Origin: a virus
IMG/VR virus record: IMGVR_UViG_3300046512_000168
Location: 1 to 64,000 of that record
DNA: 64,000 nucleotides
Direction: 5' to 3' (one strand)
This document shows positions 5,913 through 58,271 of this stretch, piece by piece. Within the stretch, counting starts at the first letter, position 1, and the number at the start of each line of letters is the position of its first letter. A program made the translations under genes and the position numbers. Below the pieces are notes generated by a model. The model saw nothing but the letters and a program-made list of their open reading frames with translations. It did not search any database and was not told the origin of the DNA.

Positions 5913-6515
5913 ATGGCGACGCGCTCGGGCATTCACGTGCAGATGACGAACGGCCAGTGGGCGGGCATCTACTGCCACTCGGACGGTTATTGGTCGTGGA
6001 ACGGCCAGAAGCTGCACGAATTCTATAATTCGCAGGCGCTCGCCGAGGCGCTAATCAGGCTTGGTGATATTTCGATCATTAACGAGGAGATCGGCGAGAA
6101 GCACGACTTCGACTACCGCAACAAGCTCTACAAGAAGTACACCAAGAATTTCGACACAGACTACGTCGCCATGCACAACGACCCCGAGTACGTGCGTCTG
6201 TCGCGCATGTGCAACGTCTATGGCCGCGATCGAGGAGAAAAGAATACCCAGGCACGTAGAGGTCCGACGCTGGCAAGCGTCTTGGTAGACGAGAGCTACG
6301 TCTACGTTTGGCGTGACGGGCAGTGGTTTGGCACCAACGAATACATAGAGAATGACGATGCCATTCACTCCGCCCTGATCGCCAGCCTGCGCCCGCTGAA
6401 GGACATCCTTTTCCTGGAAAACATCAAAAGGGACGAGAGCGGCTGGCCAGAGACCATCCGCCGCCGGACATCCTACCGACCGCCTCCCCCGACGAAGCGC
6501 GCCATCGCCCTTTAA
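5913..6515 (+). CDS. Conserved phage hypothetical protein (MxTRS..IYCHxDGY family), ends KRAIAL
   Basis: MATRSGI..IYCHSDGY..G..L..Y pattern; AAGGAG RBS. Confidence 0.7.
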   Translation: MATRSGIHVQMTNGQWAGIYCHSDGYWSWNGQKLHEFYNSQALAEALIRLGDISIINEEIGEKHDFDYRNKLYKKYTKNFDTDYVAMHNDPEYVRLSRMCNVYGRDRGEKNTQARRGPTLASVLVDESYVYVWRDGQWFGTNEYIENDDAIHSALIASLRPLKDILFLENIKRDESGWPETIRRRTSYRPPPPTKRAIAL

Positions 6516-6626
6516 ATTTTGCAACCCGTTGCAATTTCTGACGCTTCCGCTGTTGTCACGTCGGGGGCGTTTACGATATGGTGCGCGCAACTGCATCCTA
6601 CATATTTAGCATTCGAGGAAATCCCG

Positions 6627-7436
6627 ATGTCCGCGCCGTCCAATCAGTACAAGGTTGACATGCTCGCACTGGATGAGATCATCCCTTACGAGAACAACCC
6701 ACGGAACAACGAGCCGGCCGTCGACGCGGTGATCGCCTCGATCGTGTCGTTCGGCTTTCGCGTCCCGCTGCTCGTCGATCGCAACAATGTCCTGGTCGCT
6801 GGCCATACCCGGCTCGAAGCGGTCAAGCGCATCATCCAGCGCGACCCGACGCGTGCGGCCGATCTCGGCCAGCTCCCCTGCTTCCGCGCTGACGATCTGA
6901 CAGAGGATCAGGTCCGCGCCTTCCGCCTCGTCGACAACAAGACCTCCGAGCTGGCCGAATGGAACTTCGACATGCTCGCGACCGAAGTCGAGCTGCTGAC
7001 CGAGGCCGGCATCAACCTCACCGAATTCGGCTGGGCGCAGGAAGAAATCGACTGCCTGAAGTCTGTTGTCGCCGAAGACTGCCTGGACCCGTCGACGTGG
7101 GAACGTCCGGCCGAGGAGGCAGACGGCGTCAATGGTGCGATGACCGCAGCCCGCTCCCTGTCTCACTCGGCCGACGGCTCGTCCGTCCGCGTCACCATCG
7201 GCACGTTCGGCTTCATGATCCTGCGCGACGACTATGAGAAGTGGGCAGAGGCTGTCATGGCCGAAAACTCCTTCGACTTCGAGCGCGTCAACGATGAGGC
7301 GGCCCGCCGCCTTGGTCTGCTCGAAGCCAAGCAGGCTCGCACGAATTTCTTGAGCAGCGTCTACTCGACGAACGCCGCCGCGCCGGTGACTGTCGCCGAG
7401 CAGAAGGACGAAGAGACGGCAAACCTGGAGGCCTAA
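6627..7436 (+). CDS. ParB/Sulfiredoxin N-domain protein
   Basis: PYENNPRNN..SIVSFGFRVPLLVD..AGHTRLEA..AFRLVDNKTSELAEW; GAGG RBS before ATG 6627. Confidence 0.88.
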   Translation: MSAPSNQYKVDMLALDEIIPYENNPRNNEPAVDAVIASIVSFGFRVPLLVDRNNVLVAGHTRLEAVKRIIQRDPTRAADLGQLPCFRADDLTEDQVRAFRLVDNKTSELAEWNFDMLATEVELLTEAGINLTEFGWAQEEIDCLKSVVAEDCLDPSTWERPAEEADGVNGAMTAARSLSHSADGSSVRVTIGTFGFMILRDDYEKWAEAVMAENSFDFERVNDEAARRLGLLEAKQARTNFLSSVYSTNAAAPVTVAEQKDEETANLEA

Positions 7437-7443
7437 GCCGACC

Positions 7444-9805: not shown

Positions 9806-9840
9806 CATGCCGGCAACGGAGCAGCGGAAAGGCGGCACCG

Positions 9841-10728
9841 ATGACCAACAATAACGACGAGTTTCCCCGCATTCGACGCCGGACGCGCCTCCCGATCAGA
9901 GGGATGCCGCCTGGTAGTGCGTCTGTCGTCCAGCTCCCCGAGCCCATGCGCCCGCCGCCGCACGACGAGATCGACCGCGAGATCGACGACGCGCTGCGCT
10001 CCGGCCGACGCATCGATATGTCACGCGCCTTCCCAGAGCCGCCGCCGGCTGCGCCAGGTGAGAACCTGCGTGCCCATCAGCCCGTGCCAGGCGTAGACGC
10101 GCCGGACATCGACCTAGACCAAATCCCGACTATCACCGACCAGAACATGACGCCGGCCGCGCGCCTGCGCCACGTCGCGACGATATCGCCGACCTACCTC
10201 GACGAATACAAATCGCGCCTTGTCCATCGCCTGCTGATGCGCCGCTTGCCGCTCGATACGATCGCGGCCCAGCTCGGCTGCTCGGTGCGCATGGTGCAGG
10301 TGATCAAGACCAAGCTGAACAAGCGAGCCCAGCGTCAGGCCAAGATGCTGAACGTCTATGACGTCGCGGCCGAAAGCCTGCGCTTCTACAACGAAGTGCG
10401 CGGTCTCGCTCTGCGCCAGGCAGACAGCACGTCCAACAATATCAAGGACCGCCAGGTCGCGCTGCGCATCGCGCTCGAAGCCGAAAACGACAAGGTCCGC
10501 TTCCTGTCCGCATCCGGCTATTTCGAGCATATGCCGTTCGTCCCGGATCAGTCGAAGACAGCCGACCCCGAGCAGGAGAAGGTCGACACGACCCTGTCCA
10601 TGATGGCGGCCATCGTATCCGGCGAGACATCTGTCGAGGACATCGACGCATTCTTCGAGAGCGACGAGCTTGGCGCCGAAGAAGGCACCGATTACGACGG
10701 CCTCGACCCGAGCACGGACCTGCTCTAA
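9841..10728 (+). CDS. Probable terminase small subunit / HTH protein
   Basis: HTH-like LDTIAAQLGCSVRMVQ; abuts the large terminase gene. Confidence 0.5.
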   Translation: MTNNNDEFPRIRRRTRLPIRGMPPGSASVVQLPEPMRPPPHDEIDREIDDALRSGRRIDMSRAFPEPPPAAPGENLRAHQPVPGVDAPDIDLDQIPTITDQNMTPAARLRHVATISPTYLDEYKSRLVHRLLMRRLPLDTIAAQLGCSVRMVQVIKTKLNKRAQRQAKMLNVYDVAAESLRFYNEVRGLALRQADSTSNNIKDRQVALRIALEAENDKVRFLSASGYFEHMPFVPDQSKTADPEQEKVDTTLSMMAAIVSGETSVEDIDAFFESDELGAEEGTDYDGLDPSTDLL

Positions 10729-12732: not shown

Positions 12733-13277
12733 CACGCGCAATTCAGATCGACGACGAGGAAGTGGCCCCGAGCGTCAGCGTCCGGCAAGAGCTGATGTCA
12801 ATGGAGAAGCACGAGCTTGTATCCCTGCTCGAAGAGGCGACAGGCGCAGAGATTGGCGCGCGCCGCATACAGGGCCGTCTTTTGCAACGGGTTGCAGCCG
12901 CAGAAGAGATCGGAAAGCATATCGAGCGTCGTGCCAAGTTGATGATCGAGACAGTCGAGCTGGAGGCATGGGACGCGGCCACGGGCGGCAGTACCACGGC
13001 GCTCAACCTCGTCACGCTGATGTTGCGCAATGCCGTGGCCGACCTTGTCGCGCGATCAGGCAAGGAACGCCTCTACATGGCGCGCTTCCAGAGCGAGATC
13101 ATGAGCCGCGCCTTCCAGGAAATGGAGACGGACCCGAACGACGCCCAGCGCGGCGGATGCGAGGACGAGACTGCCTTGCAGTTCTACATCATCTGCCAGC
13201 TCGGCAATGTCACGCCGAAAGGCTGGTTTGCGACGGCGTGGTTCGATCTGGGGAAAGAATTGTACAAGCCGGGCTAG
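12729..13277 (+). CDS. Hypothetical protein, begins MTRAIQI
   Basis: ATGA overlap with terL. Confidence 0.7.
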   Translation: MTRAIQIDDEEVAPSVSVRQELMSMEKHELVSLLEEATGAEIGARRIQGRLLQRVAAAEEIGKHIERRAKLMIETVELEAWDAATGGSTTALNLVTLMLRNAVADLVARSGKERLYMARFQSEIMSRAFQEMETDPNDAQRGGCEDETALQFYIICQLGNVTPKGWFATAWFDLGKELYKPG

Positions 13278-13309
13278 ACTTAATCCTACATCTGTGAGAC
13301 GATCAATTT

Positions 13310-17402: not shown

Positions 17403-17633
17403 ATGATCACGATCGAGAAAGCGCGCAACTACCTGCTCATCTGCTGCGCACTCATCCTCATGCTGACGTTGGCCTCGCTCTTCACAGGTTCATGGGGCTG
17501 GCTGATCTCACTGCCTGTCTGGACGTGGACGGCTTACACATGGGGCAAGATGTATAAGCGGCTCCGAGACGACGAATTGCAACGCGTTGCAGCCGAGCGC
17601 GAGAAGCGCCGCCGCAAGATTGACCTCGACTGA
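17403..17633 (+). CDS. Small membrane protein ending RRKIDLD
   Basis: Two hydrophobic segments; ATG overlaps the upstream stop. Confidence 0.65.
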   Translation: MITIEKARNYLLICCALILMLTLASLFTGSWGWLISLPVWTWTAYTWGKMYKRLRDDELQRVAAEREKRRRKIDLD

Positions 17634-23075: not shown

Positions 23076-23649
23076 CGACAGCAAACCAGACGGCATGCGC
23101 ATGGAATACGGCTCGGCGATCTACCGCCATCGCGGCTTCGACATCGCCTACCGTGAGAACAACGAAGTCTGGAGCTGCCATGCGCTGAATGTCGAGCACG
23201 TCCAGCTCTCTCGCGTCAAGGAGATGATCAACAAGATCGACAAGCAGGCGCGTGAGCTGGGCGAGGACGGCGTGCGCGTGCTGATCGTTCACGACTACGG
23301 CTCGGTCGAGATGAAGGAGGCCTACGCCTACGCGATCGACGCCAACCGTGAGGACGTCTGGGTCACCACGACCAAGGAACACTACGCCCGCCACGGCGGC
23401 AAGAGTATCGTCGATACCCGCAAGAAGGCGAAGATCGATACCCTCGTCCTTGACACACCCGAGACGCGCGCCGCCATCCAGGCCTATCTCGACGCAGAGA
23501 AGGAAGTGCAACGGGTTGCACGCGAGAGGCGCGAATACCTCAAGACCCTGCCGCGCCTGACCATGCCGGAGCTGAAACCAGTCGAAGCCTTGTCCGAGGA
23601 CGACAGCCAGAAGCTGGCAGCCAGGCCGGTACGCAAGAGGACGAGATGA
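23068..23649 (+). CDS. Hypothetical protein ending PVRKRTR
   Basis: GAGG RBS; overlaps neighbours. Confidence 0.7.
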   Translation: MTDDSKPDGMRMEYGSAIYRHRGFDIAYRENNEVWSCHALNVEHVQLSRVKEMINKIDKQARELGEDGVRVLIVHDYGSVEMKEAYAYAIDANREDVWVTTTKEHYARHGGKSIVDTRKKAKIDTLVLDTPETRAAIQAYLDAEKEVQRVARERREYLKTLPRLTMPELKPVEALSEDDSQKLAARPVRKRTR

Positions 23650-23980: not shown

Positions 23981-24745
23981 TTGAAATACACATATTGCCT
24001 GTCTGATATTCACGGCATGGTCGATCACCTCGGCCAGGCCATGCGCTGGATCGCCAATGACTGCGCCGAGACCATGACCAGCCTCGAAGATGTCACGATC
24101 GTCTTCATGGGCGACTATATCGATCGCGGCCCCGCGTCACGCGCCGTCCTCGACATGCTGATGCTCATGAGGGACACCAGCCCTCCGACGATCGTCATTC
24201 TGCGCGGCAACCACGACGAGATGATGCTGCAGGCGCTGCGCTACCGATCGAAAACGCACGAGGTATGCTGGCTGCAGAACGGCGGCCTGGAGACGCTGAA
24301 GAACTACGAAAAGCCGGTCGCGGCCCGTGGCTTCGAACGCAGTCTCTATGACGACGCGGTCTACGCGCATCTCGACTTCATCGAGAGCATGGACCTGTTC
24401 TACGAGGACGAGCACCGCGTCTATGTTCATGCCGGCGTGCGCGGCTCGTTCCAGCGCATGGGCCTGCAGCAACCCTTTGACCTCTTGTGGATCAGGCCGA
24501 GCGAAATGGACGAAGCCTGGCCGGCCGGTATGCCGGTCGAGCCGAAGCTTGTCGTGCATGGGCACACGCCTGGTCATCCTGGCATCCCCGAAAAGACCTT
24601 CGGTATCGACGGCGGCGCCTGCTTCGACACTGGACATCTGAAGGTGGTCAAGTTTGACGATCAGCATCGCGATCCGATCCATATCCAGGAGATCAGACCG
24701 ATCAAGATGGCAGGCGTCAACGACAACAAGGTAAAGGCAGCATGA
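23981..24745 (+). CDS. Metallophosphoesterase (Ser/Thr protein phosphatase family)
   Basis: DIHG, GDYIDRG, GNHD, HAG and HGHT motifs; TTG start after AGGAGG. Confidence 0.9.
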   Translation: MKYTYCLSDIHGMVDHLGQAMRWIANDCAETMTSLEDVTIVFMGDYIDRGPASRAVLDMLMLMRDTSPPTIVILRGNHDEMMLQALRYRSKTHEVCWLQNGGLETLKNYEKPVAARGFERSLYDDAVYAHLDFIESMDLFYEDEHRVYVHAGVRGSFQRMGLQQPFDLLWIRPSEMDEAWPAGMPVEPKLVVHGHTPGHPGIPEKTFGIDGGACFDTGHLKVVKFDDQHRDPIHIQEIRPIKMAGVNDNKVKAA

Positions 24746-25128
24746 CCGGCATATTCCTTCATGATTTCTCCTGCGAGGAGGACGTCTTCTCGCAGTTCGA
24801 AACAAAGGACGAGGACAGGGAAGGCGTGCGCATCTTATTCGCGACCTACACCTACGAGAACTATTCGGGGAGTGCATTCGTGCTGCTCGAAAAGGATGGA
24901 AAGCTGTTCGAAGTCAATGGATCGCACTGCTCGTGCTACGGTCTCGAAGGTCAGTGGGCACTGGAAGAGGCTGACAAGGACGCGCTCTTGCACCGCTTGC
25001 GCAAGGGAGACATGGGCGGTGAATACGAGGGCAACTGGTCGCAGGCGCTCATCGATCTGCTCGACCCGCCATCTCCGCCGACGGTAGCAAACCTCATCGT
25101 CGCCAGGAGGAGGGCGATCGATCTATGA
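24742..25128 (+). CDS. Conserved phage hypothetical protein ending RRRAIDL
   Basis: Y.G.AFVL..DGKLFEVNGSHCSCYGLEGQW pattern. Confidence 0.75.
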   Translation: MTGIFLHDFSCEEDVFSQFETKDEDREGVRILFATYTYENYSGSAFVLLEKDGKLFEVNGSHCSCYGLEGQWALEEADKDALLHRLRKGDMGGEYEGNWSQALIDLLDPPSPPTVANLIVARRRAIDL

Positions 25129-26282
25129 CCCCTAAAGTCGAGCTGCTTACGCGAGACGGAGGGCGGGCTTGGCTTCGCATGCCGTCGGCCCAGCCGTCGC
25201 AGGGGATGGTGTCGTCAGAAGCACTCACGCGTGACGACCTCGTGCATCTTTATGCCCAGCTTAGCGCACATCTTCGCGAGACGAGTGGCCAACCCACTGT
25301 CGCGATCGCCGGCCGCGCCATTCAGCTCGAAGACGCACCTGTAGCCGCCCCGACTTTGCAACCCGTTGCACTATCCACATCTGTCGCAGTGCCGTCGAAC
25401 TTTCGCGCCATTGATCGGACCCCTGCCGTAGGAGACTGGTTCCTCATCTTACGCCGCGAAGGCTCGACGTCGGACTGCACAGTCGGCCGTCTCTACCAGG
25501 TCACACGGGTTGACGTCGAGGGCCGCTCAATTCCAGCTATCTCTTTCGTCGACGATGTCGGTGATCGCGTGTCGATGTTCTCTGGACGTGGCGTTAGCTG
25601 GGAGTTAGTCGAGCCGGCGCTGGTCGAGCCGGCGCCCCTGACGTTCAACTGGGACGCCGTAAACGATCTGAGGCCGAGACCAGAGCATTACCCGCCTCCC
25701 GCAGAGACGTTCCCGGTCGAAGGGTCTACTTGGCCGTGGCGCGTCGTCACCGATCGGCCGCCTGTCGTGGGAGACTGGGTGCGCATCACGCATGTCCCTG
25801 ATGAATATAGCGATTTCACTGCCGAGGTTGGCGGCGTCGTGCAGCTAATCGACGTCGACACAGACGAGTGGAGCAGAAACGGGGCATGGGATGGCAGCCA
25901 TCACGCAGACGACTACATGGTATGGCATGATGGGGACATGAGCTGTGTCCAGGCCGAGCTGGTCGAGCGCGTTACCAATCCGATCGTCTATCGCGCCGTG
26001 GCTACGACGACAGACACGATGGTCGAGCCTTTGGCGGAGAGCCGCGTTGTCCCCGGAAGCCTGCGCATCAACGAGCTGACACTAGACGGCTATGATAGCG
26101 TCCCCATGCCGGTGCTTGTGCAGAGCCTTGCCGAAACGATTACAGGCGTCACCCGAGAGACATTCCGCGCGCTCTTCCTGGAGCATGTCGAGGAACTGAG
26201 CCACGCTATAGACGCAGCGGTAACCGAGCTGGATGATGACCAATGGTTAGGCGCCATCCGCAGGATGCGGGAGAGGTCATGA
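25125..26282 (+). CDS. Mosaic hypothetical protein with two VGDW beta-modules
   Basis: RAIDRTPAVGDWFLI and RVVTDRPPVVGDWVRI repeats. Confidence 0.65.
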   Translation: MTPKVELLTRDGGRAWLRMPSAQPSQGMVSSEALTRDDLVHLYAQLSAHLRETSGQPTVAIAGRAIQLEDAPVAAPTLQPVALSTSVAVPSNFRAIDRTPAVGDWFLILRREGSTSDCTVGRLYQVTRVDVEGRSIPAISFVDDVGDRVSMFSGRGVSWELVEPALVEPAPLTFNWDAVNDLRPRPEHYPPPAETFPVEGSTWPWRVVTDRPPVVGDWVRITHVPDEYSDFTAEVGGVVQLIDVDTDEWSRNGAWDGSHHADDYMVWHDGDMSCVQAELVERVTNPIVYRAVATTTDTMVEPLAESRVVPGSLRINELTLDGYDSVPMPVLVQSLAETITGVTRETFRALFLEHVEELSHAIDAAVTELDDDQWLGAIRRMRERS

Positions 26283-27118
26283 ACGGGCAGGGCGCTAGAC
26301 ATATAATTTGACAAACACTCATACATATGAGATAGTCAAAGGAGATGAAAGGGCAGGGCATGAGCAGGGCAATCGATTTCACACCGGAAGAGCACCACGA
26401 GGAAAAAGAGTTCGGCCCTCTGTGGCTCCCGCCGCATACCTGCGACGACTTCAATGACCACGAGTGCGGCATCTGCAGAATGCGCTCCCAGATGCGCGCC
26501 TATTACGAAAAGTGCCGGCAGGAATATAAGATCGCCTGCGCGGCTGATCGCGGCGAATGGACGCCGCGCGAGACGAGGGCAACGGCATTATGACACGCGC
26601 ACTCGAACTGGAAGAATTGCAACGCGTTGCACCATCGGAGGCGCCGCCCGAGCCGATACCTGAATTCACCCATATAAGGCATGACGGCTATACGTGGTGC
26701 GGCTATGCCAAGGGCAAGTACGGCGACCATGAGCGCGGCCATCTCTACTCAACAGTCACCAACAGGGCCCAGCGCGTCGCTATGTGGCAGAGCAACCAAC
26801 TCTACGGAGACGGGTCGCTGACCATCGACTGGGTCGAGAACGGCTGGAAAGTCTGCCCGCACTGCGAACGTGATAAGTGGAGCGAGGAGAACAAGGACGC
26901 CCTGGCTGCGCAGCGCAGGTACGCGGCCGAGGAGATAGCGATCGCCAAGGCCGAGGCCGGCGAATGGACGCCCAAGAAGAAGCGCGCTGTCATCCTACGC
27001 GAGCATGGTCAGCCAGAGACAGTGCTGCGCGCCAGGCCATTTTCCGACTTCAAGACAACGGAAGAACTGATCGAGGCGTGGAAATGAAAGCTACTCCAGG
27101 ACAACGAGAGCAGTTGCT

Positions 27119-27469
27119 ATGAAGAAAAGCTGCCACATCACCGTGGACTACGAAGGCGGGACTGCCTGCGCCTGGGCGATCGAGCGCACGGCCAAGGGTG
27201 TCGAAGAGCGGATAGAAGAACTGTGCCGGCCCGAGATGCGCGGCAGCCAGCAGATCACCCCGAGAAGAATGCCTACGAAGATAACACTTCACGTCGACGT
27301 GGAAAGCCAAGGCTTCAAGGTATGGGCCGTGGGCACTGACGGCTACGAGAAGGTGGAGGAGCGCGCCCTAGCCCTGCTCGCCGCCACGAGCAGAGAATTC
27401 AACCGTCTGCACGGCATCGAGCCCGCCGTCGACGAGTACGCGATAGAGAAGAGGGCGATCCAGTTATGA
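27119..27469 (+). CDS. Hypothetical protein ending KRAIQL
   Basis: ORF coupled to the downstream gene. Confidence 0.6.
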   Translation: MKKSCHITVDYEGGTACAWAIERTAKGVEERIEELCRPEMRGSQQITPRRMPTKITLHVDVESQGFKVWAVGTDGYEKVEERALALLAATSREFNRLHGIEPAVDEYAIEKRAIQL

Positions 27470-27774
27470 GCCAGCCCAATGCGATAAGCTGCGCAACCTG
27501 CGTTTACCGACACACATATACCATCAACTCGGTCTGCCGGCGAAACCCGCCGACGGCGCTCCCAGGCGGCAACGTCTGGCCGAAGGTCGGGGAGTTGGAT
27601 TGGTGCGGCGAGTGGCAGCCGAAGAGCGAGCCCATGCCCATCCAGCCGAGGCGATCGCTTAGCCTCTGAAGAAAATACTTGACATCAACTAATTTAGGCT
27701 TTGACAAACACTTAAACATATGTAAAAGTCAAAAATGAAGGCTACAGGTTTTTGCAACGCGTTGCAGACAGGAG

Positions 27775-28335
27775 ATGGGCATGGCCGAGAATTTCGACAA
27801 GATGTGCGAGGCAGTCATCGATAAGTGCGGGCTCGATGGCGCAATCCCTTGGATCATGATGGCCTCGCTCCTCTACTACCACGCGGACATTTCCATCCTC
27901 ACCGATCCATTCTACGACAAGCTTACGCGCGAGCTGCACGGCAACTGGGCCGAGCTGAAACACCCACACAAAGCGCTGATCGACAAGGACGGCCTGAAAA
28001 CGGGCAGCCTCTATAACCTGAAGATCGAGAACTATCCGAAGAGCGTGCGCGGCGCGGCCTTCTCTCTCATCACCGGCAAGGGCTTCGGCCTCGACGTCAA
28101 GAAGCGCGACGCCATCTATTACGCCGACTTCGAGCCACCTGAATATGCCTTCGACACCTATGTCTATGGCGAGCGCAAGGAGACCTGGCGCCAGTACCAG
28201 GCCCGCCTCAATCCGCCGAGCGAGATCGAGCTCGCCGAAGCCGTGATGGCAGCCATCATTCCGCCACCCGAGCCTGAGCCTGTCTTCAATATTCGCAAGC
28301 GCGTCCGGCCGACTAATGAAGGAGTAAGTGCATGA
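27775..28335 (+). CDS. Stand-alone NAD-dependent DNA ligase subdomain Ia-like protein
   Basis: LYYHADISILTDPFYDKL matches YY..D...I.D..YD.L of ligase domain Ia; no adenylation KxDG motif. Confidence 0.6.
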   Translation: MGMAENFDKMCEAVIDKCGLDGAIPWIMMASLLYYHADISILTDPFYDKLTRELHGNWAELKHPHKALIDKDGLKTGSLYNLKIENYPKSVRGAAFSLITGKGFGLDVKKRDAIYYADFEPPEYAFDTYVYGERKETWRQYQARLNPPSEIELAEAVMAAIIPPPEPEPVFNIRKRVRPTNEGVSA

Positions 28336-28502
28336 GCGTATTCGCCAAGGACCCCTGGGTTCTGTTCTGGATCGTCCTTGTCATCGTGCTGCTGATCCGA
28401 TCCATGTGGAAGAGCAGGGAGCGCACGATCAGGATCAAGGAGCGGGGCTGGCCGCCGAACCATCTCGATGCCAACGGCGACTTCAGGGAAATCGACGAGT
28501 AA
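28332..28502 (+). CDS. Small membrane protein (GWPPxHLDAxGD)
   Basis: 56-aa ORF not in the track; AAGGAG RBS; one TM segment. Confidence 0.6.
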   Translation: MSVFAKDPWVLFWIVLVIVLLIRSMWKSRERTIRIKERGWPPNHLDANGDFREIDE

Positions 28503-28533
28503 TCCATCCAACCCAGAGAGGGGCAGACGCCAC

Positions 28534-29850: not shown

Positions 29851-30077
29851 CAGAGTGGAACCGAGACATCAGCAGCGCCCCTAGGGTCGGGAAAATCTGG
29901 CTAGCTGTCCAGAACTTCCAAGTCGTCGGCCCGTCCTACTGGGTGGAAAGCCGCCAAGCCTGGGCCGGCCTCGGCAGCAAGGAAGAGCCGATCGCCTGGT
30001 ATCCCTACTTCAAGCCGGAGCATCCGGACGCTAAGCCGGTTGAAGAGCCGGCTGTCAGGAAGCGGGTGCGCGCATGA
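29847..30077 (+). CDS. Small hypothetical protein ending VRKRVRA
   Basis: W..ISSAP..PIAW pattern; AAGGAGG RBS. Confidence 0.65.
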   Translation: MTEWNRDISSAPRVGKIWLAVQNFQVVGPSYWVESRQAWAGLGSKEEPIAWYPYFKPEHPDAKPVEEPAVRKRVRA

Positions 30078-31025
30078 CTATGCCCCTGGAACGGATTTAC
30101 GAGCTTGGCGAGGAGATCGTCATGCTTAGCCTGGGCGGCGCGCAGGTCATGCTCATGCTGTCCGACGGCAACGAGACATTCCACGATGCTCGTTTCGTCG
30201 GCTTCCAGCCAGGCGCGATTGTCATCATGCACGCCACGCAGCCGAAGGTCATTCCGTTCCAGGTCATCACCGAACTGGAGATCATGTACGTATGAGGCTC
30301 GGCGATATCGATGTGCGGGACCTCGCCAACAGGCTCATGAAGAAGGGCGACAACGTCGAGGCCAGGCGCAGGCAGAAGCGAGACGCAGACAGCCTAGCAT
30401 TCGACGCGTCTGCCGGAATGATGGCATCGTCCTTCGTATTCTGGGGGCTATCGCAGGTGCTGACAGACATGGCCGACGCGCATGACGCCGTGCCACCAGT
30501 CAACGGCCGGGCCTTGGACCTTGCAGATGACTAGGCGTGAGGTGCACCTGACCCAGGACGAGGTCGTCATGCTGCGCGACGGTATCGTGCCGACCAGCCT
30601 GCGTGATCGCCTCGCACCGGAGAACAGGCGCACCAAGCGCTGCGAGGCGTGCGGTGGTCATTCCGGGAATGCGTCGGCCACCTGCAAACACTGCGGCAAG
30701 TCCTTCGAGTTGGTGGCGAAACCGTGGCATTGCAGGGTCAAGCGCAAGTGATTTTGCAACGCGTTGCAACGTATATTTGTTGACAAACACTTAGATATGT
30801 AGGATATTTTATTATCAACAAGGGGAGACGGGAAATGCGGACGATGGCGAAAATGACCTTCCAGAAGGGCGACGAGACCTTCTCCAGCGAGGGTAACTTT
30901 AACGAGCAGTGCAACGCGGCCGAGGAGCACTTTGGCGTCTCTCGTCGCGAAGGCGAATGGAACATGCTGGGCCTGCTTATGGTCTGGTACTTCATGGACG
31001 AAATCGAAGACTGCATGGCGGATTG

Positions 31026-31646: not shown

Positions 31647-32425
31647 CTGACCCGCGCAGCCTTTGGAAACGCCTCAAGGACTTTCTGTTCAAGGAACCGA
31701 ACATCATAGCCGGAAGCACGATGCAACGGGTTATCGGAGGCTTGCGCGACGGCGAAGTCGCAGTCCATCTGTCGCGGCCAGACCAGCGTATAAAGGGCGA
31801 GCCCGGTCATCGCATCAAGGACAGCGATTTGCGGCCTTTCGGGACACCTGGGCATTTATACTATGACCCAGCCGCTATGCAGTGGATGGTCTTCATGCGC
31901 GATGGCAGCACGCGTGAGTTCGAATGGGACGATGCCAGCAGCGCCTGGAACTGCGTCGTGGCCGAGCGAGAGGCCATAGATCGCCAGCCTGCGGTAGCGG
32001 CCGAACCAGTCGCGCCAGCCGTCGGCACGGTTTACGCGGTAGCGGGACCTAACAGCTCCGTTGCGTGGGAGCTTGTCAATTCCGACAGGACGGTCACTCG
32101 GTACCAGAACCAGATCGACGCGCTGAATGCGAGGAACCAGCAACGCGTAGCTGACCCAAGGCATAGCCATTCTGTCTTCGACCCAGGGCATAGCCACGCC
32201 ATAACCCCTATAATCCACGTAGGCGTCGACGTAGGCACCCGAGACGAGAGCGTCGTTATAGAGAACATGAACACCATGCTCGACGCAGAAATGCGCCGCT
32301 ACCTGACGACACGGGCGCGCAACATGGCCGGCAGGCAGGTCGAGACGGTGACCGTGAACGTGCCCGCTCCATCAGAGCCGAACATCCTGGCCGGTAGGAA
32401 GCGCGTGCTCGATCTCGGAGAATAA
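31643..32425 (+). CDS. Mosaic hypothetical protein ending RKRVLDLGE
   Basis: ATGA overlap; internal DPRHSH/DPGHSH repeat. Confidence 0.65.
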   Translation: MTDPRSLWKRLKDFLFKEPNIIAGSTMQRVIGGLRDGEVAVHLSRPDQRIKGEPGHRIKDSDLRPFGTPGHLYYDPAAMQWMVFMRDGSTREFEWDDASSAWNCVVAEREAIDRQPAVAAEPVAPAVGTVYAVAGPNSSVAWELVNSDRTVTRYQNQIDALNARNQQRVADPRHSHSVFDPGHSHAITPIIHVGVDVGTRDESVVIENMNTMLDAEMRRYLTTRARNMAGRQVETVTVNVPAPSEPNILAGRKRVLDLGE

Positions 32426-32504: not shown

Positions 32505-33866
32505 GTGCTGCGACTGGAAGTGGGCAAATACTACTGGAACAAAGAAGGGCACGTCCGGGGCCCAATATCGCGTGGCGATGACCCGATGTACCCATTCGCA
32601 GACCCGGCCGGTTACTCCTACACCGGCGACGGGAAATTCGTCATCGGTCTCGACGACGAGGATGACAATCTTGTGGAGGAGGTCACGCATTTCAGACTCC
32701 TCTCGACGAACGGTTTCCTCTATCGAACGGCCGGAGCGATCTACAGGACCGTGAGCCACGGCTTGAGCCCGGACGATCTGCCTGCGGTAAACTTTCATGG
32801 CGAGCAGACTGCGCAGCTCCTGTGGGCCTACCTCACGGATATCGAATGGTGCAAGGCTCCAGCGGAACGCGCCAGGGTAGGCGACACCGTCATGTGCACG
32901 CAGACCAACGACGTAGGCGCGCTCGTTCTGCAGGGCGAATACACAGTCAAAGAAGCGGTAGCGACACCAGACATGACGCGCGTCCTGGTCGAGGACTGGC
33001 GGGGCTCGCGATGGTGGCTGTTTAACGATGGCCATCCGCACACTCCGCAATACGAGCTCCTGGTAAACCGGCGCCGCCCACCAAACCCGACGTTGCCGGC
33101 ATCGGTGGCGATCAAGCGCGGTGACATGGTGCGTGCCCTTTCGACACGGTACGACTTTACGGCAGGTATGCTCTATGAAGTGATACGCTTCAGCAAGGAC
33201 GGTCTCAAGGTCCGCGTGCTTAACGACAAGGGCGAAGACGACTGGCTGTACATCGGCGCCGACACGGGGGCGAGCTTCGTCGGCTGCGAGCTGGCACAGA
33301 GTTTAGCAGGGCCACCAACATTCTCGCCGTCCCGCACATACGACGAATACCTGCAGGAAGGCTGCACCTGCCATCATCCTCCACACATTGCTCCGTGCTC
33401 GTCCTGCACCAACAAGCTGTCCGAGGAAGAATGGCTAGCCGAAGAGAAGGCGGAACACGAGGCTGCCGAGCAGAAGAGCACCCGCGAGGCCGAGCTGCTG
33501 AAGGCGTATAAGCACGAAAGGACCGCCGAGCTGCTGCGCGACGTCATGTTCTCGGACGACATGAAAATGGTCAGCCAGACGATTAAGGACAAGATCGAGG
33601 CCGTCTTCGATCGGCTCATCCACGATCAGGAATTCGAGAAGAAGCGCAAGGACTACGACAATGCGCGCGCCGTCTACACCCAGCACCTCAACCAGGCGAA
33701 CACGTTGCAGGAGAAGAAGCGCGAGCTGACGGCCGAGATCGAAATCCTCTCCAATCGCAAGTCTCAGTTCGAGAAGGAGGTCATAGACCTACAGAACCGC
33801 ATCCTTATGCTGCGCGATGAGCTGCCGATCGAGACGACGTCCAACGGAAGGAAAATTCAGCTATGA
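32505..33866 (+). CDS. Mosaic hypothetical protein (beta-modules, Cys cluster, coiled coil) ending GRKIQL
   Basis: GTG start after GGAG; the track start at 32448 is the promoter -35; CTCHHPPHIAPCSSC. Confidence 0.7.
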   Translation: MLRLEVGKYYWNKEGHVRGPISRGDDPMYPFADPAGYSYTGDGKFVIGLDDEDDNLVEEVTHFRLLSTNGFLYRTAGAIYRTVSHGLSPDDLPAVNFHGEQTAQLLWAYLTDIEWCKAPAERARVGDTVMCTQTNDVGALVLQGEYTVKEAVATPDMTRVLVEDWRGSRWWLFNDGHPHTPQYELLVNRRRPPNPTLPASVAIKRGDMVRALSTRYDFTAGMLYEVIRFSKDGLKVRVLNDKGEDDWLYIGADTGASFVGCELAQSLAGPPTFSPSRTYDEYLQEGCTCHHPPHIAPCSSCTNKLSEEEWLAEEKAEHEAAEQKSTREAELLKAYKHERTAELLRDVMFSDDMKMVSQTIKDKIEAVFDRLIHDQEFEKKRKDYDNARAVYTQHLNQANTLQEKKRELTAEIEILSNRKSQFEKEVIDLQNRILMLRDELPIETTSNGRKIQL

Positions 33867-35685: not shown

Positions 35686-36333
35686 ATGAGCAGCGATAAC
35701 CCAGACTACATGAACGCCGTCCATACGTATCAGCTCTCTGACGGCCGATCAGTAACGCTTACGGAAGGACAGCACACGCTGCTGCACATGATCGTCGACG
35801 GCAGAGGGCCGAAAGGTTGGGCCGGCCGGCAGGACGCCGACACGCTTCTGCGCAACTACCTGACCTACGGCGCATTCGAGCCGACGCCTGAGCAGTTCAA
35901 GGCCTACCGCGAGAAGCGGGACGCGTTGGTGACCTCAATCGAGGTGGAGGACGCGCAGACGGGATACGCCAACGTCTCCTTGCCAAAGTTGTTTGGCGAT
36001 ATGCGCAGCCAGGTGCTGGAACTGTGTGCAGATGCCCGCATGAACCCTAGCGCGCTGAAGCTGATGTTTGAGGAGCTGCGGCGCAGGCTAGCAGTCGTGC
36101 ACAGCCAGGACGTGATCGCGACAATGACGGCGCAGAGGGAGCTGGAAGCGGCACAGCAGGAAAAGGTGTTCGCGCAGAACGAAACGGAAAAGGCACGCCG
36201 AGCACAGGCTGAATACCGTACGCGCGCGCTTGAAGACCAGGCGCTGATCGAGGTCCTGGAACGGCGCATTGCAGCCTTGCGGGAAGAACTGCCGGAGGAA
36301 GTCTCCGCTGGCGGAAGGGCGATCCAGCTATGA
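35686..36333 (+). CDS. Coiled-coil hypothetical protein ending GRAIQL
   Basis: ATGA overlap; GAGG RBS. Confidence 0.7.
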   Translation: MSSDNPDYMNAVHTYQLSDGRSVTLTEGQHTLLHMIVDGRGPKGWAGRQDADTLLRNYLTYGAFEPTPEQFKAYREKRDALVTSIEVEDAQTGYANVSLPKLFGDMRSQVLELCADARMNPSALKLMFEELRRRLAVVHSQDVIATMTAQRELEAAQQEKVFAQNETEKARRAQAEYRTRALEDQALIEVLERRIAALREELPEEVSAGGRAIQL

Positions 36334-36731
36334 GCGATTTCTTTTACCGGACGCACCCACAGGCCTCGGTGCGCGCGGCTGCGCTGGCGCGCTGGACGAT
36401 CGGCAAGAAGACGATCCAGTCACAGCTACCGGTTAACTTCCCAGGCTACGAAAAGGTTGGTATCGACAGTCTGCAGTACCGCTGCAGCTCATGCAACGAG
36501 CTGCAGGAGGATAGATACTTCGCCGGCGAGGTGACGCTCATGGAGAATGGCGACTTTCGCGTTCTGGCTGTAGGAGCCTGCCCGGACTGCGAGCAGGGCG
36601 CTTGGTGCGCCTGGAAGGTCCGTTACGAAGCCGACACCGGAGAGCTTGTCATGCTCGACGCGCTGAAGGATTATCCCATGCCGGTACGCGAGGACGGGAC
36701 GAGAGTGAGGGCGATCGATGTCGGCGACTGA
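36330..36731 (+). CDS. Zn-ribbon hypothetical protein ending RAIDVGD
   Basis: CSSC and CPDC. Confidence 0.65.
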   Translation: MSDFFYRTHPQASVRAAALARWTIGKKTIQSQLPVNFPGYEKVGIDSLQYRCSSCNELQEDRYFAGEVTLMENGDFRVLAVGACPDCEQGAWCAWKVRYEADTGELVMLDALKDYPMPVREDGTRVRAIDVGD

Positions 36732-37188
36732 TGAGCCCGTCTGCATCCGCAACTGGCGCACAAGCTGGGAAGCGCACGAAGCCAAGGTCAAAAGCCAGAA
36801 ATCCTGGCGCGTGATCGAGCTCGACTTCATGACGGCAGCGCGCATTGTGTGCCGCTCTGGGTTAGGCATTTCTGCGCAGGCAAGTCCGAGCCACTACTGC
36901 AACCTCCGTAGCTCGTTCCTGGGCGGGGCTATGGAAGACGAGTGGCATATGGACGGCACACTGCCGACGAGCTTCGAAGTCATGGTGTTTCTGCCGGAAG
37001 GTGTCTCAAATCTGTGGATACACCATGACCTGATACCTGACGGACTCGATCAGCCCGGAGGGTGGGTATCGATCGAGGCTATCGAGGAGACGATCCGCCG
37101 AAATGGCGGATGGGTGGCCGACCCGGAACCGCCGAAGCCAACCACGTCGAACATCCTGGTGTTAAGGCCGAGAAGGCTCGATCTCTGA
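36718..37188 (+). CDS. Hypothetical protein ending RPRRLDL
   Basis: Overlapping operon gene. Confidence 0.6.
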   Translation: MSATDEPVCIRNWRTSWEAHEAKVKSQKSWRVIELDFMTAARIVCRSGLGISAQASPSHYCNLRSSFLGGAMEDEWHMDGTLPTSFEVMVFLPEGVSNLWIHHDLIPDGLDQPGGWVSIEAIEETIRRNGGWVADPEPPKPTTSNILVLRPRRLDL

Positions 37189-37565
37189 TGGTTTCCGATA
37201 AGATGTATCGACGCATGTGCATGAGCGGATGGCAGGCCCAGCAGGAACGGCGGAAGATGAACGCGAAGAATTCCTTGGCCGCGCTCGATCGGCGCACCAA
37301 GCTCATGCTGGAGATCGAGCATACGCTCGCCGGCCGGTCCTGGATGCTGCCGGAACCGCTCAAATTTGCCCTGCACCCAGGCAAGAAGGCCGTCATTCTT
37401 CTGTCTGGAAAGCTGACGCCTATCCTGCGGGAATTTGTGGACAATGGGAAAATCTTCGTAGAGGAGGAATTTTTTCCTAGACAGCGAATTCATAATATCC
37501 TACTTCTGCTCCCACAGCAGATAACTGAGGAGCCCAAAAGGCCGCCTCGGGCAGTCGATCTTTGA
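37188..37565 (+). CDS. Hypothetical protein ending PRAVDL
   Basis: TGATG overlap start. Confidence 0.6.
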   Translation: MVSDKMYRRMCMSGWQAQQERRKMNAKNSLAALDRRTKLMLEIEHTLAGRSWMLPEPLKFALHPGKKAVILLSGKLTPILREFVDNGKIFVEEEFFPRQRIHNILLLLPQQITEEPKRPPRAVDL

Positions 37566-38414: not shown

Positions 38415-38806
38415 TATTTACAATGCCGCATACATGCTGCTGCCTTGGGCGGTAGCTCTCTACTTCTACCTGGAAGCCGGAAGATGTCGATGGCAGGTCA
38501 TGTTCCTGACTCTTCCGGAGCGTTCGCGAGAACCGCTGGCCATCCTCGTCAAGAACAATCAGGTACCGCGTGCGCTGATCCTGTTCTGGATCGTCTTCTG
38601 GGCACCGCTCGCCGTCGTCTTCTGGGTGCTGGCCCGTTACCGCGAATTTACCGCCAGCCGGCCGAGCACACTCGACCTGAAGTGAAAGACAGCATGTCGA
38701 ACATAGGGGGCACTTGCCCCCTTTTTCATTTGACAAACACTTAGATATGTAGGATAAAGAAACTAGATTGCAACGCGTTGCAGCAGCACCTAACGGAGCA
38801 GAACAT

Positions 38807-47587: not shown

Positions 47588-48064
47588 ATGCGCTTCGTTC
47601 TCACCGGCCGGTGCACCGTCCAGGGCTCGTTTATCGAGCGGGACGGACTTACCCAGAACCTTTCTGACATCGGCGATCGCGTCGTCGACAGCTTCAACCA
47701 GGGCGCCGACGTCCTGGTAGCCTCCCGCACCGATACGCAGAAAGCCGTGCAGGCCCGTGCGCTCGGCAAGCCAGTCTGGACTTATGATCAGCTCTTTCGG
47801 TACTGGAGCCTGCGCAAGGACGGGCAGGGCGAGATCGCCGCACGCGAGGCCATCAGGGGCTCAGTTCTGCCCCGTGAGCCGGTCGCCGCACGGGTGCCCG
47901 TGACGCCGCAGGGCCGGTACGCGATGACCGCCAGGGAGGCTATCCGCGCCCGCTTAGAGCAGAACGCACGCGAGCTCCGCGCTGCGCAAGAGGCACCCAA
48001 GACGGTTGCGCCGCACCCCAGCGCTCACCCGCTGTCAAACGGCCGGAGGGCCATCGACCTGTGA
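47588..48064 (+). CDS. BRCT-like hypothetical protein ending GRRAIDL
   Basis: FVLTG...R..L...G..V......DVLV....K...ARALG..V pattern. Confidence 0.55.
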   Translation: MRFVLTGRCTVQGSFIERDGLTQNLSDIGDRVVDSFNQGADVLVASRTDTQKAVQARALGKPVWTYDQLFRYWSLRKDGQGEIAAREAIRGSVLPREPVAARVPVTPQGRYAMTAREAIRARLEQNARELRAAQEAPKTVAPHPSAHPLSNGRRAIDL

Positions 48065-48369
48065 AGACGCGCCTGCAGGTCGAGACGGAGAGGGACCTTC
48101 ACTCCGACACGCACGATTTCGTCATCCGTGTGAAGATGCCGCGATCGGCGCTGGAAGCACTGACGTCTTTTGAGCGGCAGATGATCGTGCAGGTCATCAA
48201 GAGCACGCGCAGCACCAATGCAGCCATCCTGGCCTATATCGCGGACTTCATCGCGCGGCTGGACGGGGAGGGTGAGGAGGCACCATATACGGGAGGCCGC
48301 ATCCTGGTCGACGAAACGTTGGTCGGGGGCAGGGCTCTCGATCTCGGGGACGAAAAAGAAAAGCTTTGA
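48061..48369 (+). CDS. Hypothetical protein with GRALDL near the C-terminus
   Basis: GTGA overlap. Confidence 0.6.
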   Translation: MKTRLQVETERDLHSDTHDFVIRVKMPRSALEALTSFERQMIVQVIKSTRSTNAAILAYIADFIARLDGEGEEAPYTGGRILVDETLVGGRALDLGDEKEKL

Positions 48370-48424
48370 CAAACACTTAGACATATGCAAGTATGATGTG
48401 CATATGAAGAACAGGAGCCACATT

Positions 48425-53363: not shown

Positions 53364-53753
53364 ATGGACAACCTAATCGTTCGAAAGCGTGTGCTAATGA
53401 ACAACGAGAACGTGCCACCTCCGAAACCGGAACAAGACTGGTACATGCGCTGGCCGAACGGATCGGAAGTCTACGCGGCCGGCGGCACGGGGCAGATCGA
53501 GCAGCAGCTCGGATGGGTTATCCGACGCGGAGCCGAGCACCTGGCTTTCCAGCGCACGGGCCCAGGTGAGGACGACATAAAATTCGCCGGCAGTGCGCCG
53601 GATGCGTCCTCGGCTATAGTCAAGCTGGGCGGCAAACTCTGGACTATCGGCTACAAGCCGCCTAGTCCCGCGCCCGCAAAGTCCCCTTCCCAGACAGCAT
53701 CTTCCGAACATCTGCCGGCGATAAGGAAAAGAGTTCGCCAGCCTTCTCAATAG
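53364..53753 (+). CDS. Hypothetical protein with IVRKRV at the N-terminus and IRKRVR at the C-terminus
   Basis: TGATG overlap start. Confidence 0.65.
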   Translation: MDNLIVRKRVLMNNENVPPPKPEQDWYMRWPNGSEVYAAGGTGQIEQQLGWVIRRGAEHLAFQRTGPGEDDIKFAGSAPDASSAIVKLGGKLWTIGYKPPSPAPAKSPSQTASSEHLPAIRKRVRQPSQ

Positions 53754-54922: not shown

Positions 54923-55240
54923 CGAGCGCGCTATCCAGATCGAGGAGCGGCGCGTAGAGGCCCTGGCCGCTAAATACGCCCCGCCCAAATCCCCCGAATA
55001 CGAAACGTCGACGCCTCGCCTGAAGAAGTTCGGTGGCGACATGCTGAATATCTCCTACCCGGAGATGGTGCAGCTCTCCGAAACGCTTGCGTTTCATCTG
55101 CACGCCGTTGCCGGTGTCACCGTCGGCCCCCACGACCTGGCCTCGGCCTTCTTCAAGACCGTCGAGACTATGAACTCCCTTCCAACTGAGAAGCCTGCCG
55201 AGAACACCTCTTCGGACAGGCGTAGCAAAGGAAATACCTG

Positions 55241-56464: not shown

Positions 56465-56508
56465 AAACCTCGGCCGGGCCCATCCACCCCTGCCGGGGTT
56501 TTCTTTTT
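56465..56508 (+). terminator. Probable intrinsic terminator
   Basis: aaaacctcggc / gccggggtttt stem plus T tract. Confidence 0.6.
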
Positions 56509-56742
56509 GTGCACCGCACATTTTTTCTTAAAATCGCTGGAACCAAATTTATCGGCGTGCGTTTATAGCCCGTTATGCCTGCACTTGAGGGACGCACTGA
56601 TCCAAAATAGCTAGGTAAAACATAGTTGTAGACTCAACAGGTCTAAGTTATATTCACCGCGTCCACTTTTGCGCGTAGCATGCGAGTGGCAGGCATTCGG
56701 ACAGTCCCATTGGGAGGGCTGCTCCCGGAAGAAGGGGTTTAA

Positions 56743-57204
56743 ATGCTAATGATCAAGTACCATCGTCAGCCCGCAAAGGGCGATGAGAATGACTTGCAGA
56801 CCATCCTGAAAGACCCGGAGACGAAGGACTACCAGGACCTGCGCGACCGCGCAGCCTATGTCTACATCACCGGCACATTTCCGACGCATCTCCGCTCGTA
56901 CATGATGAGCCTGCTGCGCATAGGGACTGCGTACAGTTTGAAACCCGTTGCACTGGATGGCAGATCGGGTTCCATGGAGCTGACGCCTGAAGTGCGGAAG
57001 GCCCTCGACCTCGAAGATCACCCGATGGTTTCGCGCACGCGCGACTTCGTCAACGAAGGATACAAGATTTTCTTTCAGCGCGACGTAAACGAGCGCCGAC
57101 CATACTCCAAGGTCCTGCTTTACAAGAAGGACGGCGGGGTCATGCACAAGCTCGTCGTCCAGGCCGACGGCTCCATACTCGAAGGCTGGCCAACTCGTTC
57201 GTAA
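56743..57204 (+). CDS. Hypothetical protein
   Basis: 153-aa ORF after a 310-bp non-coding leader. Confidence 0.65.
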   Translation: MLMIKYHRQPAKGDENDLQTILKDPETKDYQDLRDRAAYVYITGTFPTHLRSYMMSLLRIGTAYSLKPVALDGRSGSMELTPEVRKALDLEDHPMVSRTRDFVNEGYKIFFQRDVNERRPYSKVLLYKKDGGVMHKLVVQADGSILEGWPTRS

Positions 57205-57270
57205 TATTATTTGACAAACACTTACACTTGTGGCACTGTATAAGTATAACAAACCACAGGTGTCAGAACC

Positions 57271-57660
57271 ATGTCAAATTCGGTCGTAACGACCAAGATA
57301 GGGGTGCGGACAGACGCACCCCATATTCCCGCACGCGGCTCGAAGGCGTATAAGCTACTCTCGCATCTTCTGAGGGGAGTCGAGATCGATGCCGGGTACG
57401 CTTACCTGGAGCTCAATCTTCCGACCTTACAGGCCAGAGCATCCGAATTGCGCAAACTCGGCTGGCCTGTGCGTGCACTCGAACGCCCCCATCCCAGGTT
57501 GATTAACGAAAAGACTGTGTACTATCTTCTCGATGCAACTTTTCGCCAATGGATTGCGGAAAATTCTGATAAGCATCCGAACGAGTACCCAGGGCTAGAG
57601 GGTCGAGGCAAGTACATTCCGCAGCGTGACGAAGGCACCGGAAATGGGGGTGGGCCTTGA
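57271..57660 (+). CDS. Winged-HTH DNA-binding protein
   Basis: LQARASELRKLGW.V..YYL; first gene after the promoter at 57211. Confidence 0.65.
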   Translation: MSNSVVTTKIGVRTDAPHIPARGSKAYKLLSHLLRGVEIDAGYAYLELNLPTLQARASELRKLGWPVRALERPHPRLINEKTVYYLLDATFRQWIAENSDKHPNEYPGLEGRGKYIPQRDEGTGNGGGP

Positions 57661-58271
57661 TTGAGTGGATAGCAAGCATAGTACCAAATACACCACAAAC
57701 GAGATGGGCATTGGACGAGTTCATTACCTTGACTGCATTATTCGCCAGCGCCGCATTCGGTATATGGTACATTGTTCGAGCGATAGAGCGGCACACGCGC
57801 CGCATCATGACCGCCAATATTGAAAATCCGAGCAGACCATTTACTGTATCATTTTCGCCCGATGCCCCCGGTCTGCAGGACGCTTACCGCGTCGACGCCT
57901 GGGTCCGTTGCACCCCGCTTGAGGCACTATTTTTCAACCCCTCCTCTAAGAGGTGGCAGGGTTACCGGCAGATCGCCGGTCTCGGCTCTGCCTTCGTCAA
58001 CGGCGCCCTGGTCACATTCCGAGCAGTACCGACCGGCGTGTCGGAAGACTTCCTGGCCGAACTGACCGAGGCCGCCGAGGATGGCTTAATCCCTCCCGAT
58101 CTCCTCTCTCGCCTGGCAGACATGGACCCTAATGAGGTCTTCTCTCTTGTCGAGGCGATGGGCCTTGTCCGACAATTCAACACTGCACTTGAGGCGGCTG
58201 CCCAGCCAGAGACTCCGGAGCCGATACTGTCGGCCTTCCGCATCCAGCGTCGCGCCATCGATCTCGACTGA
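57657..58271 (+). CDS. Membrane-anchored hypothetical protein ending RRAIDLD
   Basis: One TM segment; TTGA overlap. Confidence 0.6.
   Translation: MIEWIASIVPNTPQTRWALDEFITLTALFASAAFGIWYIVRAIERHTRRIMTANIENPSRPFTVSFSPDAPGLQDAYRVDAWVRCTPLEALFFNPSSKRWQGYRQIAGLGSAFVNGALVTFRAVPTGVSEDFLAELTEAAEDGLIPPDLLSRLADMDPNEVFSLVEAMGLVRQFNTALEAAAQPETPEPILSAFRIQRRAIDLD

Follow-up and report, generated by a model that had tools for sequence, protein, structure and literature searches.

Why do some sixteen otherwise unrelated proteins of a single phage end in almost the same five residues? The question is raised by the window analysed here, positions 1 to 64,000 of IMG/VR record IMGVR_UViG_3300046512_000168, which makes up the leading 64 kb of a phage contig of 82,193 bp with a G+C content of 60%, almost all of its genes on the + strand and an estimated completeness of 77% (CheckV). 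About one in eight of this phage's proteins ends, and rarely begins, with the peptide R-A-[I/L]-[D/Q]-L, which we call the main tag. We propose that the tag is a shared docking handle, read by a component of the module to which a phage AAA+ ATPase with a similar tail belongs, and we give this reading an even chance (a probability of about 0.5).

The main tag is concentrated at chain ends. We defined a strict motif, R-[AKRV]-[ILVM]-[DQ]-[LIVF], counted as terminal when within 10 residues of a chain end, and applied it to a proteome of 137 genes obtained by independent gene calls (~24,900 residues). It occurs 18 times, with 13 copies C-terminal, three N-terminal and two internal, that is, at 13 of 1,507 C-terminal positions against 2 of 21,599 internal ones (Fisher test, 3e-14); N-terminal copies are likewise enriched over internal positions (2.5e-3). 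Composition-preserving shuffles gave a mean of 0.17 carriers and a maximum of 3. An unbiased scan with reduced-alphabet 5-mers returned [RK][AG][hydrophobic][DE][hydrophobic] as the top C-terminally enriched word, and a generalised pattern (basic residue, hydrophobic, any residue, L/I/V, then the chain end or an acidic residue) found 18 carriers where 1.7 were expected.

These counts bear out an earlier interpretation of the DNA, here called the sequence-only reading, which had drawn attention to the tag and expected it to be enriched at termini over shuffled and internal controls. All 16 C-terminal peptides that it listed lie directly before the stop codons it assigned to them, and its figure of about 16 carriers is fair, with RRSLSL (stop at 27669) and STLDLK (38685) as weak members. 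Four of its five N-terminal copies hold (12729, 26360, 26590 and 54915), the one at 26590 only if the start in the ATGA overlap is used, whereas for the fifth, PRRAMDL (31026-31092), the choice of start decides whether it is N-terminal or internal. No Pfam family matched the N-terminal copies, which might be strands of ribbon-helix-helix domains. The carriers had also been described as lacking other similarity, and Pfam and PHROG scans of all of them indeed gave no family in common; only three could be assigned to wider families, each through its body and never through its tail.

The nearest complete relative, NZ_CP071625.1 (109,431 bp), is filed under 'plasmid p7' of Rhizobium bangladeshense. 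This record is a phage genome in synteny with the contig (median identity between their proteins, 75%), complete with portal, capsid, tail, lysis and replication genes, and p7 is either a phage-plasmid or a co-assembled phage. About 27 kb of p7, with the lysis genes and those for the AAA+ ATPase, a DnaB-like helicase, DNA polymerase, primase, RecA and RuvC, are missing from the contig, so the contig phage is incomplete. Farther relatives are Rhizobium phages L338C and RHph_I4, Agrobacterium phage JP1, Rhodobacter phage RcTiptonus, Pseudomonas phage SM1 and Aeromonas phage HJ05. In p7 we counted 18 strict and 26 generalised carriers, and across the Rhizobium-phage lineage the handle is found on 13-18% of proteins. 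Tagged genes neighbour each other in runs of two to four (window 35686-37565, 27119-27669 and 47588-48369), and p7 has a run of five, a hint of joint action by the carriers.

Selection acts on the peptide and not on the DNA beneath it. In 12 tagged ortholog pairs with p7, there are 26 differences among 60 core codons, of which 21 are synonymous and 5 are replacements, against 29 synonymous and 48 replacement differences in the 10 codons upstream of the tag in the same pairs. The core is more conserved than its flanks, and EPNIL..RKR..DLGE is conserved in a p7 ortholog of 40% overall identity. In the other two + frames the motif occurs six times, never within 36 nt of a gene end. Half of the 16 tags overlap the next start codon, and there Arg is encoded by AGG, which doubles as a Shine-Dalgarno site; the other eight are followed by a gap of 55-390 nt and use CGC, CGG, CGT or CGA. 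Six different Arg codons occur in the tags. Half of the tags lie at operon ends. The exact DNA word AGGGCGATCSAKYTRTGA has just six matches in IMG/VR, all by chance and on unrelated contigs. Asp is GAT in 8 of 11 tags compared with 26% genome-wide, a bias that is not specific to the tags since GATC is twofold over-represented across the genome (587 occurrences in the whole contig, 292 expected from base composition). The proposal that the peptide is what is selected, made earlier from codon variation, is thus strongly supported by the excess of synonymous change, the varied Arg codons and the lack of off-frame copies near gene ends, and the eight tags without an overlapping start rule against ribosome-binding sites or start overlap as the full explanation of its conservation.

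The tag is also an add-on to the proteins that bear it. The body of the protein encoded at 24742-25125 belongs to a large family, and 119 of 119 homologues from elsewhere lack the tail; a comparison with orthologues in other phages had been called for by the sequence-only reading. In an AlphaFold2 (AF2) model of this protein, residues 1-107 have predicted local distance difference test (pLDDT) values of 84-97 and the tail ~62-65. Conversely, PhoH and one other protein are tagged in p7, and their orthologs here stop just short of the tag. The absence of the tail from 119 homologues, its low confidence in the model and its presence or absence between orthologs together identify it as an appended, modular element, gained and lost independently of the carrier domain.

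What links the tag to an ATPase is a set of three replication-module proteins that carry the same motif: the AAA+ ATPase, its downstream neighbour and a protein adjoining RecA. The p7 ATPase has 570 amino acids and a tail ending ...GGRAMALDAPKSALDS. The protein of ~220 residues encoded just 3' of it ends RRRALDL in p7, RRAVKL in L338C and RHph_I4, and RNRKLKL in HJ05; the 138-residue protein adjoining RecA in L338C and RHph_I4 starts V-R-T-R-N-R-V and continues through a Pro-rich linker to P-R-R-A-V-[ND]-L. Searched against a database, the ATPase had more than 2,500 relatives, most of them on phage-sized contigs of ~100 kb. In 120 homologues the last 40 residues follow one plan: a conserved N-A-R-P-A, an R-x-R-x-R word (present in similar form in 95), a linker with a median length of 10 residues and a terminal G-G-R-A-[M/V/L/I]-x-L-D-[G/S]-COOH, which has exactly this spacing in 55 and is slightly shifted in many others. 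A second tag, [IV]-R-[KR]-R-[VT]-R (or [IV]-R-x-R-[VT]-R), is found at the ends of several proteins of the phage. Because the homologue tails run from R-x-R-x-R to the terminal motif, the main and second tags are, as read from these alignments, the two halves of a bipartite ATPase tail.

The identity with the ATPase tail was recovered from distant relatives as well. A matrix built from 53 distant tails, with the p7 ATPase and its closest relative left out and with no positional information, placed 12 C-terminal tags among the 20 best windows of this proteome, including the top five. At many IMG/VR loci around the ATPase, the downstream gene ends R-[AG]-[ILV]-x-[LI], and in a more distant group a DUF3150 protein of ~410 residues takes the neighbour's place and ends F-M-R-G-L-D-L. 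Aligned on the Arg, the ATPase tail reads R-A-hydrophobic-x-L-D-G, and the tags read R-A-[I/L]-[D/Q]-L followed by a stop, D, GD, GE or ADD. Since the tags stop after Leu or go on with an acidic residue where the ATPase has Asp, the chain carboxylate may stand in for that Asp, a possibility that fits 13 of the 13 strict carriers.

The ATPase itself has one classic AAA domain (Pfam PF00004, residues 303-428). In its AF2 model (mean pLDDT 92.5), two alpha/beta domains are followed by a disordered tail (pLDDT 50-65), and the top Foldseek matches are the D1-D2 regions of Cdc48, p97, Drg1 and Rix7 (E ~1e-21, template modelling (TM) score up to 0.65). As the alignment takes in nearly the full chain (~570 columns), the protein is predicted to be a Cdc48-like double-ring ATPase without the usual N domain. 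It stands in a gene string (p7 28253-32234 and relatives) that comprises the ATPase, the tagged ~220-residue protein, DUF1257 and DUF2997 proteins and a 113-residue protein; the ATPase and the 113-residue protein are present in seven of seven relatives, and the DUF1257 and DUF2997 genes are missing from one to three. Some ATPase homologues (P0125, P0177) have intein or homing-endonuclease insertions, which are frequent in proteins important for phage replication. We found no published description of the tag or of the ATPase tail, and literature searches on DUF1257 and DUF2997, phage Cdc48-like unfoldases and the related Rhizobium phages returned nothing relevant.

ATPase tail and tags vary together from lineage to lineage. 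In L338C and RHph_I4 the carriers are fewer and have variant ends such as RRAVKL, KRNVKL, RKVSLD, RRKINLD and RRHVNLDD; the ATPase tail of these two phages is KRAGMSLDS, accompanied by tags such as RKVSLD, RRKINLD and RRAVKL. Tag enrichment was looked for in JP1, RcTiptonus, SM1 and HJ05 and none was found. Across the eight phages a canonical ATPase tail goes with tags and a degenerate tail with no enrichment, four against four. Self-pairing of tags through an Arg-Asp bridge was considered and rejected, given that L338C variants have Lys or Arg in place of Asp.

We propose a model where the tag is a short linear docking motif, held on a flexible linker at the ends of unrelated accessory proteins. 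Its core, R-A-[I/L/V]-x-L, would precede a negative charge, supplied by the carboxylate of the chain itself or by an Asp or Glu within two residues, and it copies the last residues of the disordered ATPase tail, in which [V/I]-R-x-R-x-R is followed after ~10 residues by G-G-R-A-[M/L/I/V]-x-L-D-[G/S]-COOH. One reader in the ATPase module, either the ring itself or a partner that holds the ATPase tail, would grip that tail, the neighbour and all of the tagged accessory proteins, so that a single machine would have these proteins as its clients, adaptors or substrates. The handle has been multiplied over the proteins of this Rhizobium-phage lineage. A single reader is suggested because the motifs are identical, stand alike behind flexible linkers and co-vary from one lineage to another. 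Of the roles that the sequence-only reading had offered for one phage-wide signal, itself strongly supported here, docking on one hub gains support from the identity with the ATPase tail and neighbour and from the co-variation between lineages, and sorting into the capsid is weakened, as discussed below.

Known systems offer partial precedents. The C-terminal tail motifs of Cdc48/p97-class ATPases are docking peptides for partners: the p97 tail ends DDLYG and is bound by PUB and PUL cofactors, and the HbYX tails of archaeal Cdc48 and PAN dock on the 20S proteasome. Like these, the phage protein is a predicted double-ring ATPase with a disordered tail ending in a conserved short motif; unlike them, that motif, R-A-hydrophobic-x-L-D-G, is unrelated, has no aromatic residue and is found on 16-26 other phage proteins as well. 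Pfam scans of the module's neighbours brought up no tail reader of the PUB/PUL or 20S kind, although no systematic search was made. In phage T4, gp43, gp33 and gp55 have C-terminal clamp-binding peptides, and bacterial clamp motifs follow QL[SD]LF. The T4 case resembles ours in that one short terminal peptide is common to unrelated phage proteins, there read by a ring-shaped hub; the main tag differs from clamp motifs in having neither Gln at its first position nor a final aromatic residue, and no clamp gene is annotated in the p7 replication module.

It is tempting to speculate further that the carriers form the client system of a phage Cdc48/p97-like unfoldase, in which 16-26 accessory proteins with copies of the tail motif would serve as interchangeable adaptors and bring host proteins for unfolding or extraction. 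The cofactor motifs of p97 and engineered degraders that tether to ClpX are models for such action of adaptors on one machine, and we regard this extension, drawn by analogy, as possible but doubtful. If one reader does grip all of the carriers, many phage genes of unknown function could be approached as a block through a single peptide, which would reveal the partner they have in common, assign them to one pathway and supply a portable tag for experiments in rhizobia. The link to the ATPase gives a widespread, unstudied family of phage AAA+ proteins (>2,500 members) its first testable feature, a conserved bipartite tail.

Several points weigh against a reader in the ATPase module. That the tag is bound by anything, and by what, we infer from sequence. 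The ATPase gene is absent from the 82-kb contig (77% complete) and is known from p7 and other relatives only. All eight phages compared are counted as having the ATPase, yet just four of them have expanded tags. The AF2 monomer, which is silent on docking in trans, leaves the ATPase tail undocked, and therefore nothing points to the ring itself as reader. The second tag, found on the portal and on a terminase-side protein, fits an account based on ATPase clients poorly, and may have another reader or bind nucleic acid. Finally, because the tag is short, it could resemble the ATPase tail in part through convergence on a reader in the host.

Such a host reader might be ClpX or another AAA+ protease, for which the tag would be a tether, like the XB peptide of SspB, or a degron, like the C-terminal RRKKAI of MuA, which is a ClpX signal; it would then time the removal of the carriers or deliver targets bound to them. 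We consider this unlikely. The arrangement of a folded domain, a flexible linker and a short basic-hydrophobic terminal peptide matches SspB, and RRAVKL and KRNVKL of L338C recall the MuA sequence. JP1 has no tag enrichment, however, and the ClpX of its Agrobacterium host is expected to be almost the same as that of Rhizobium; moreover, a host protease leaves the motif on the phage ATPase and its neighbour, across several proteobacterial hosts, unexplained. Unlike XB or the MuA signal, the tag is on many proteins, and the tail of Rhizobium SspB, VVSLDSFRKKQ, has the aliphatic-Asp core in common with it but places hydrophobic before basic residues, the reverse of the order in the tag. The XB peptide has been reported to be active wherever in the chain it stands (PMC12373786), in keeping with tags that lie at one or the other end or have further residues after them. 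A complex prediction for two ClpX zinc-binding domains of Rhizobium aethiopicum and the last 40 residues of the 47588-48061 protein scored 0.02 and speaks neither for nor against binding.

Sorting into the procapsid, for delivery into the next host, seems to us improbable. Encapsulin cargo-loading peptides and the T4 capsid-targeting sequence are terminal peptides on cargo proteins, and they resemble the tags in their terminal position behind Pro- or Ala-rich linkers on unrelated proteins. In keeping with such a role, the portal bears the second tag (at its N-terminus here and its C-terminus in L338C) and the gene immediately 5' of the portal bears the main tag. The option is weakened because two carriers are predicted to be membrane-anchored and because the carriers of longest standing belong to the replication module (the AAA+ ATPase, its neighbour and the protein adjoining RecA), features that set the tags apart from the encapsulin and T4 peptides; most carriers, besides, are among the small accessory genes.

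There is only a slim chance that the tag is a general nucleic-acid-binding tail, with Arg-rich ends holding the carriers on phage DNA. This would suit the R-x-R-x-R second tag, which both the portal and the protein upstream of the large terminase carry, the weak or below-cutoff DNA ligase matches of two carriers, and the p7 tags on a PhoH protein and on a protein adjoining RecA. At its most conserved positions, however, the main tag has a single Arg, two aliphatic residues and a negative charge, and this pattern is not that of a DNA-binding peptide.

Mimicry of the C-terminus of a host SDHAF4-family protein is very improbable. In the 6.5-Mb genome of Rhizobium aethiopicum, taken as host type, R-A-x-[DEQH]-[LF]-stop gave five DNA matches against seven for a control pattern, and the sole clear host gene end among the five is a DUF1674/SDHAF4 homologue ending EINGRAIDF, near the NGRRAIDL and NGRALDL of the phage. 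The family end, G-R-[AC]-I-D-F-COOH, is near-identical to the tag over six to seven residues, is terminal and has a docking role: in the human complex the active site of the succinate dehydrogenase flavoprotein is plugged by the corresponding end, whose final Asp and Phe lie in that site and are reported to be strictly conserved (PMC10784507). This defining Asp-Phe end is not kept in the phage tags, which end in Leu and never in Phe, show Gln instead of Asp in 3 of the 13 carriers here and in 8 of the 18 in p7, and continue beyond the Leu in 6 of 13 carriers; the Rhodobacter homologue has Ile where the tag has its most constant residue, Arg.

Were the tag a by-product of the DNA or RNA sequence, either as ribosome-binding site and spacer for the gene that follows or as a word for recombination or regulation where genes meet, the AGG codons at overlapping starts and the GAT bias would be accounted for. 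This reading is largely refuted and the least credible of all, given the eight tags with gaps of at least 55 nt and ordinary Arg codons, the free synonymous and rare replacement change, the lack of off-frame copies at gene ends, and the same peptide at N-termini and on the ATPase of distant phages.

Table 1. Copies of the main and second tags in the window
Feature	Position	Strand	Remarks
Main tag, C-terminal RAIAL	6498..6512	+	stop directly after; operon end, 111-nt gap, palindrome downstream; p7 ortholog ends KRALLL
Main tag, C-terminal RKIDL-D	17613..17630	+	80-residue protein; operon end; one hydrophobic stretch by scan, a second by eye
Main tag, C-terminal RAIDL	25111..25125	+	after ANLIVARR; next start overlaps (ATGA), its Shine-Dalgarno site being the AGG codons
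Main tag, C-terminal RAIQL	27452..27466	+	overlaps next start
Weak main tag, RSLSL	27652..27666	+	67-residue open reading frame; operon end
Main tag, C-terminal RALDL-ADD	30508..30531	+	
Merged tag, RKRVLDL-GE	32396..32422	+	second tag RKRV fused to LDL; after PNILAG; operon end
Main tag, C-terminal RKIQL	33849..33863	+	453-residue protein; p7 ortholog keeps NGRKIQL at 49% overall identity
Main tag, C-terminal RAIQL	36316..36330	+	first in a run of four tagged genes
Main tag, C-terminal RAIDV-GD	36708..36728	+	
Main tag, C-terminal RRLDL	37171..37185	+	after SNILVLRP
Main tag, C-terminal RAVDL	37548..37562	+	operon end
Weak main tag, STLDL-K	38665..38682	+	p7 ortholog identical
Main tag, C-terminal RAIDL	48047..48061	+	SNGRRAIDL; next start overlaps (GTGA); carrier weakly matches C-terminal end of a DNA-ligase profile
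Main tag, RALDL-GDEKEKL	48331..48366	+	best match of the proteome to the ATPase-tail matrix
Main tag, C-terminal RAIDL-D	58251..58268	+	carrier has N-terminal hydrophobic helix; immediately 5' of portal gene
Main tag, N-terminal M-T-RAIQI	12735..12749	+	followed by acidic run
Main tag, N-terminal M-S-RAIDF	26366..26380	+	
Main tag, N-terminal M-T-RALEL	26596..26610	+	if the ATGA-overlap start at 26590 is used
Main tag, N-terminal MSNE-RAIQI	54927..54941	+	
Main tag, internal AG-RAIQL-ED	25314..25328	+	also in p7 ortholog
Second tag, N-I-RKRTR	58408..58422	+	portal N-terminus; L338C portal has it at the C-terminus instead
Second tag, IRRRTR	9871..9888	+	N-terminus of protein upstream of large terminase
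Second tag, (I)RKRVR	28294..28308	+	near C-terminus; protein has below-cutoff match to ligase domain Ia
Second tag, (V)RKRVR-A	30057..30071	+	C-terminus
Second tag, (I)RKRVR	53724..53738	+	near C-terminus; same protein begins MDNLIVRKRVL
Second tag, (V)RKRTR	23632..23646	+	C-terminus

Two of the carriers are stand-alone proteins that weakly match opposite ends of NAD-dependent DNA ligase. The protein encoded at 27781-28335, with the second tag, matches Pfam NAD-dependent DNA ligase domain Ia at 26.7 bits (cutoff 27). For that at 47588-48064, with the main tag, the match is to a PHROG ligase profile (E 5e-4), at the profile's C-terminal end, taken here as the BRCT region.

DNA searches of the phage collection gave no match, nor did a protein search of viral contigs with the 453-residue carrier. 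The same kind of search with the portal found one 4-kb relative, in which the gene upstream ends KRAMML.

A palindrome, TGCAAC-N2-3-GTTGCA, occurs in 37 copies in the 82 kb, including those at window positions 6520, 32428 and 58278, and is probably a regulator site or a terminator-like boundary between transcription units. Three of its copies lie directly 3' of tagged genes at operon ends.

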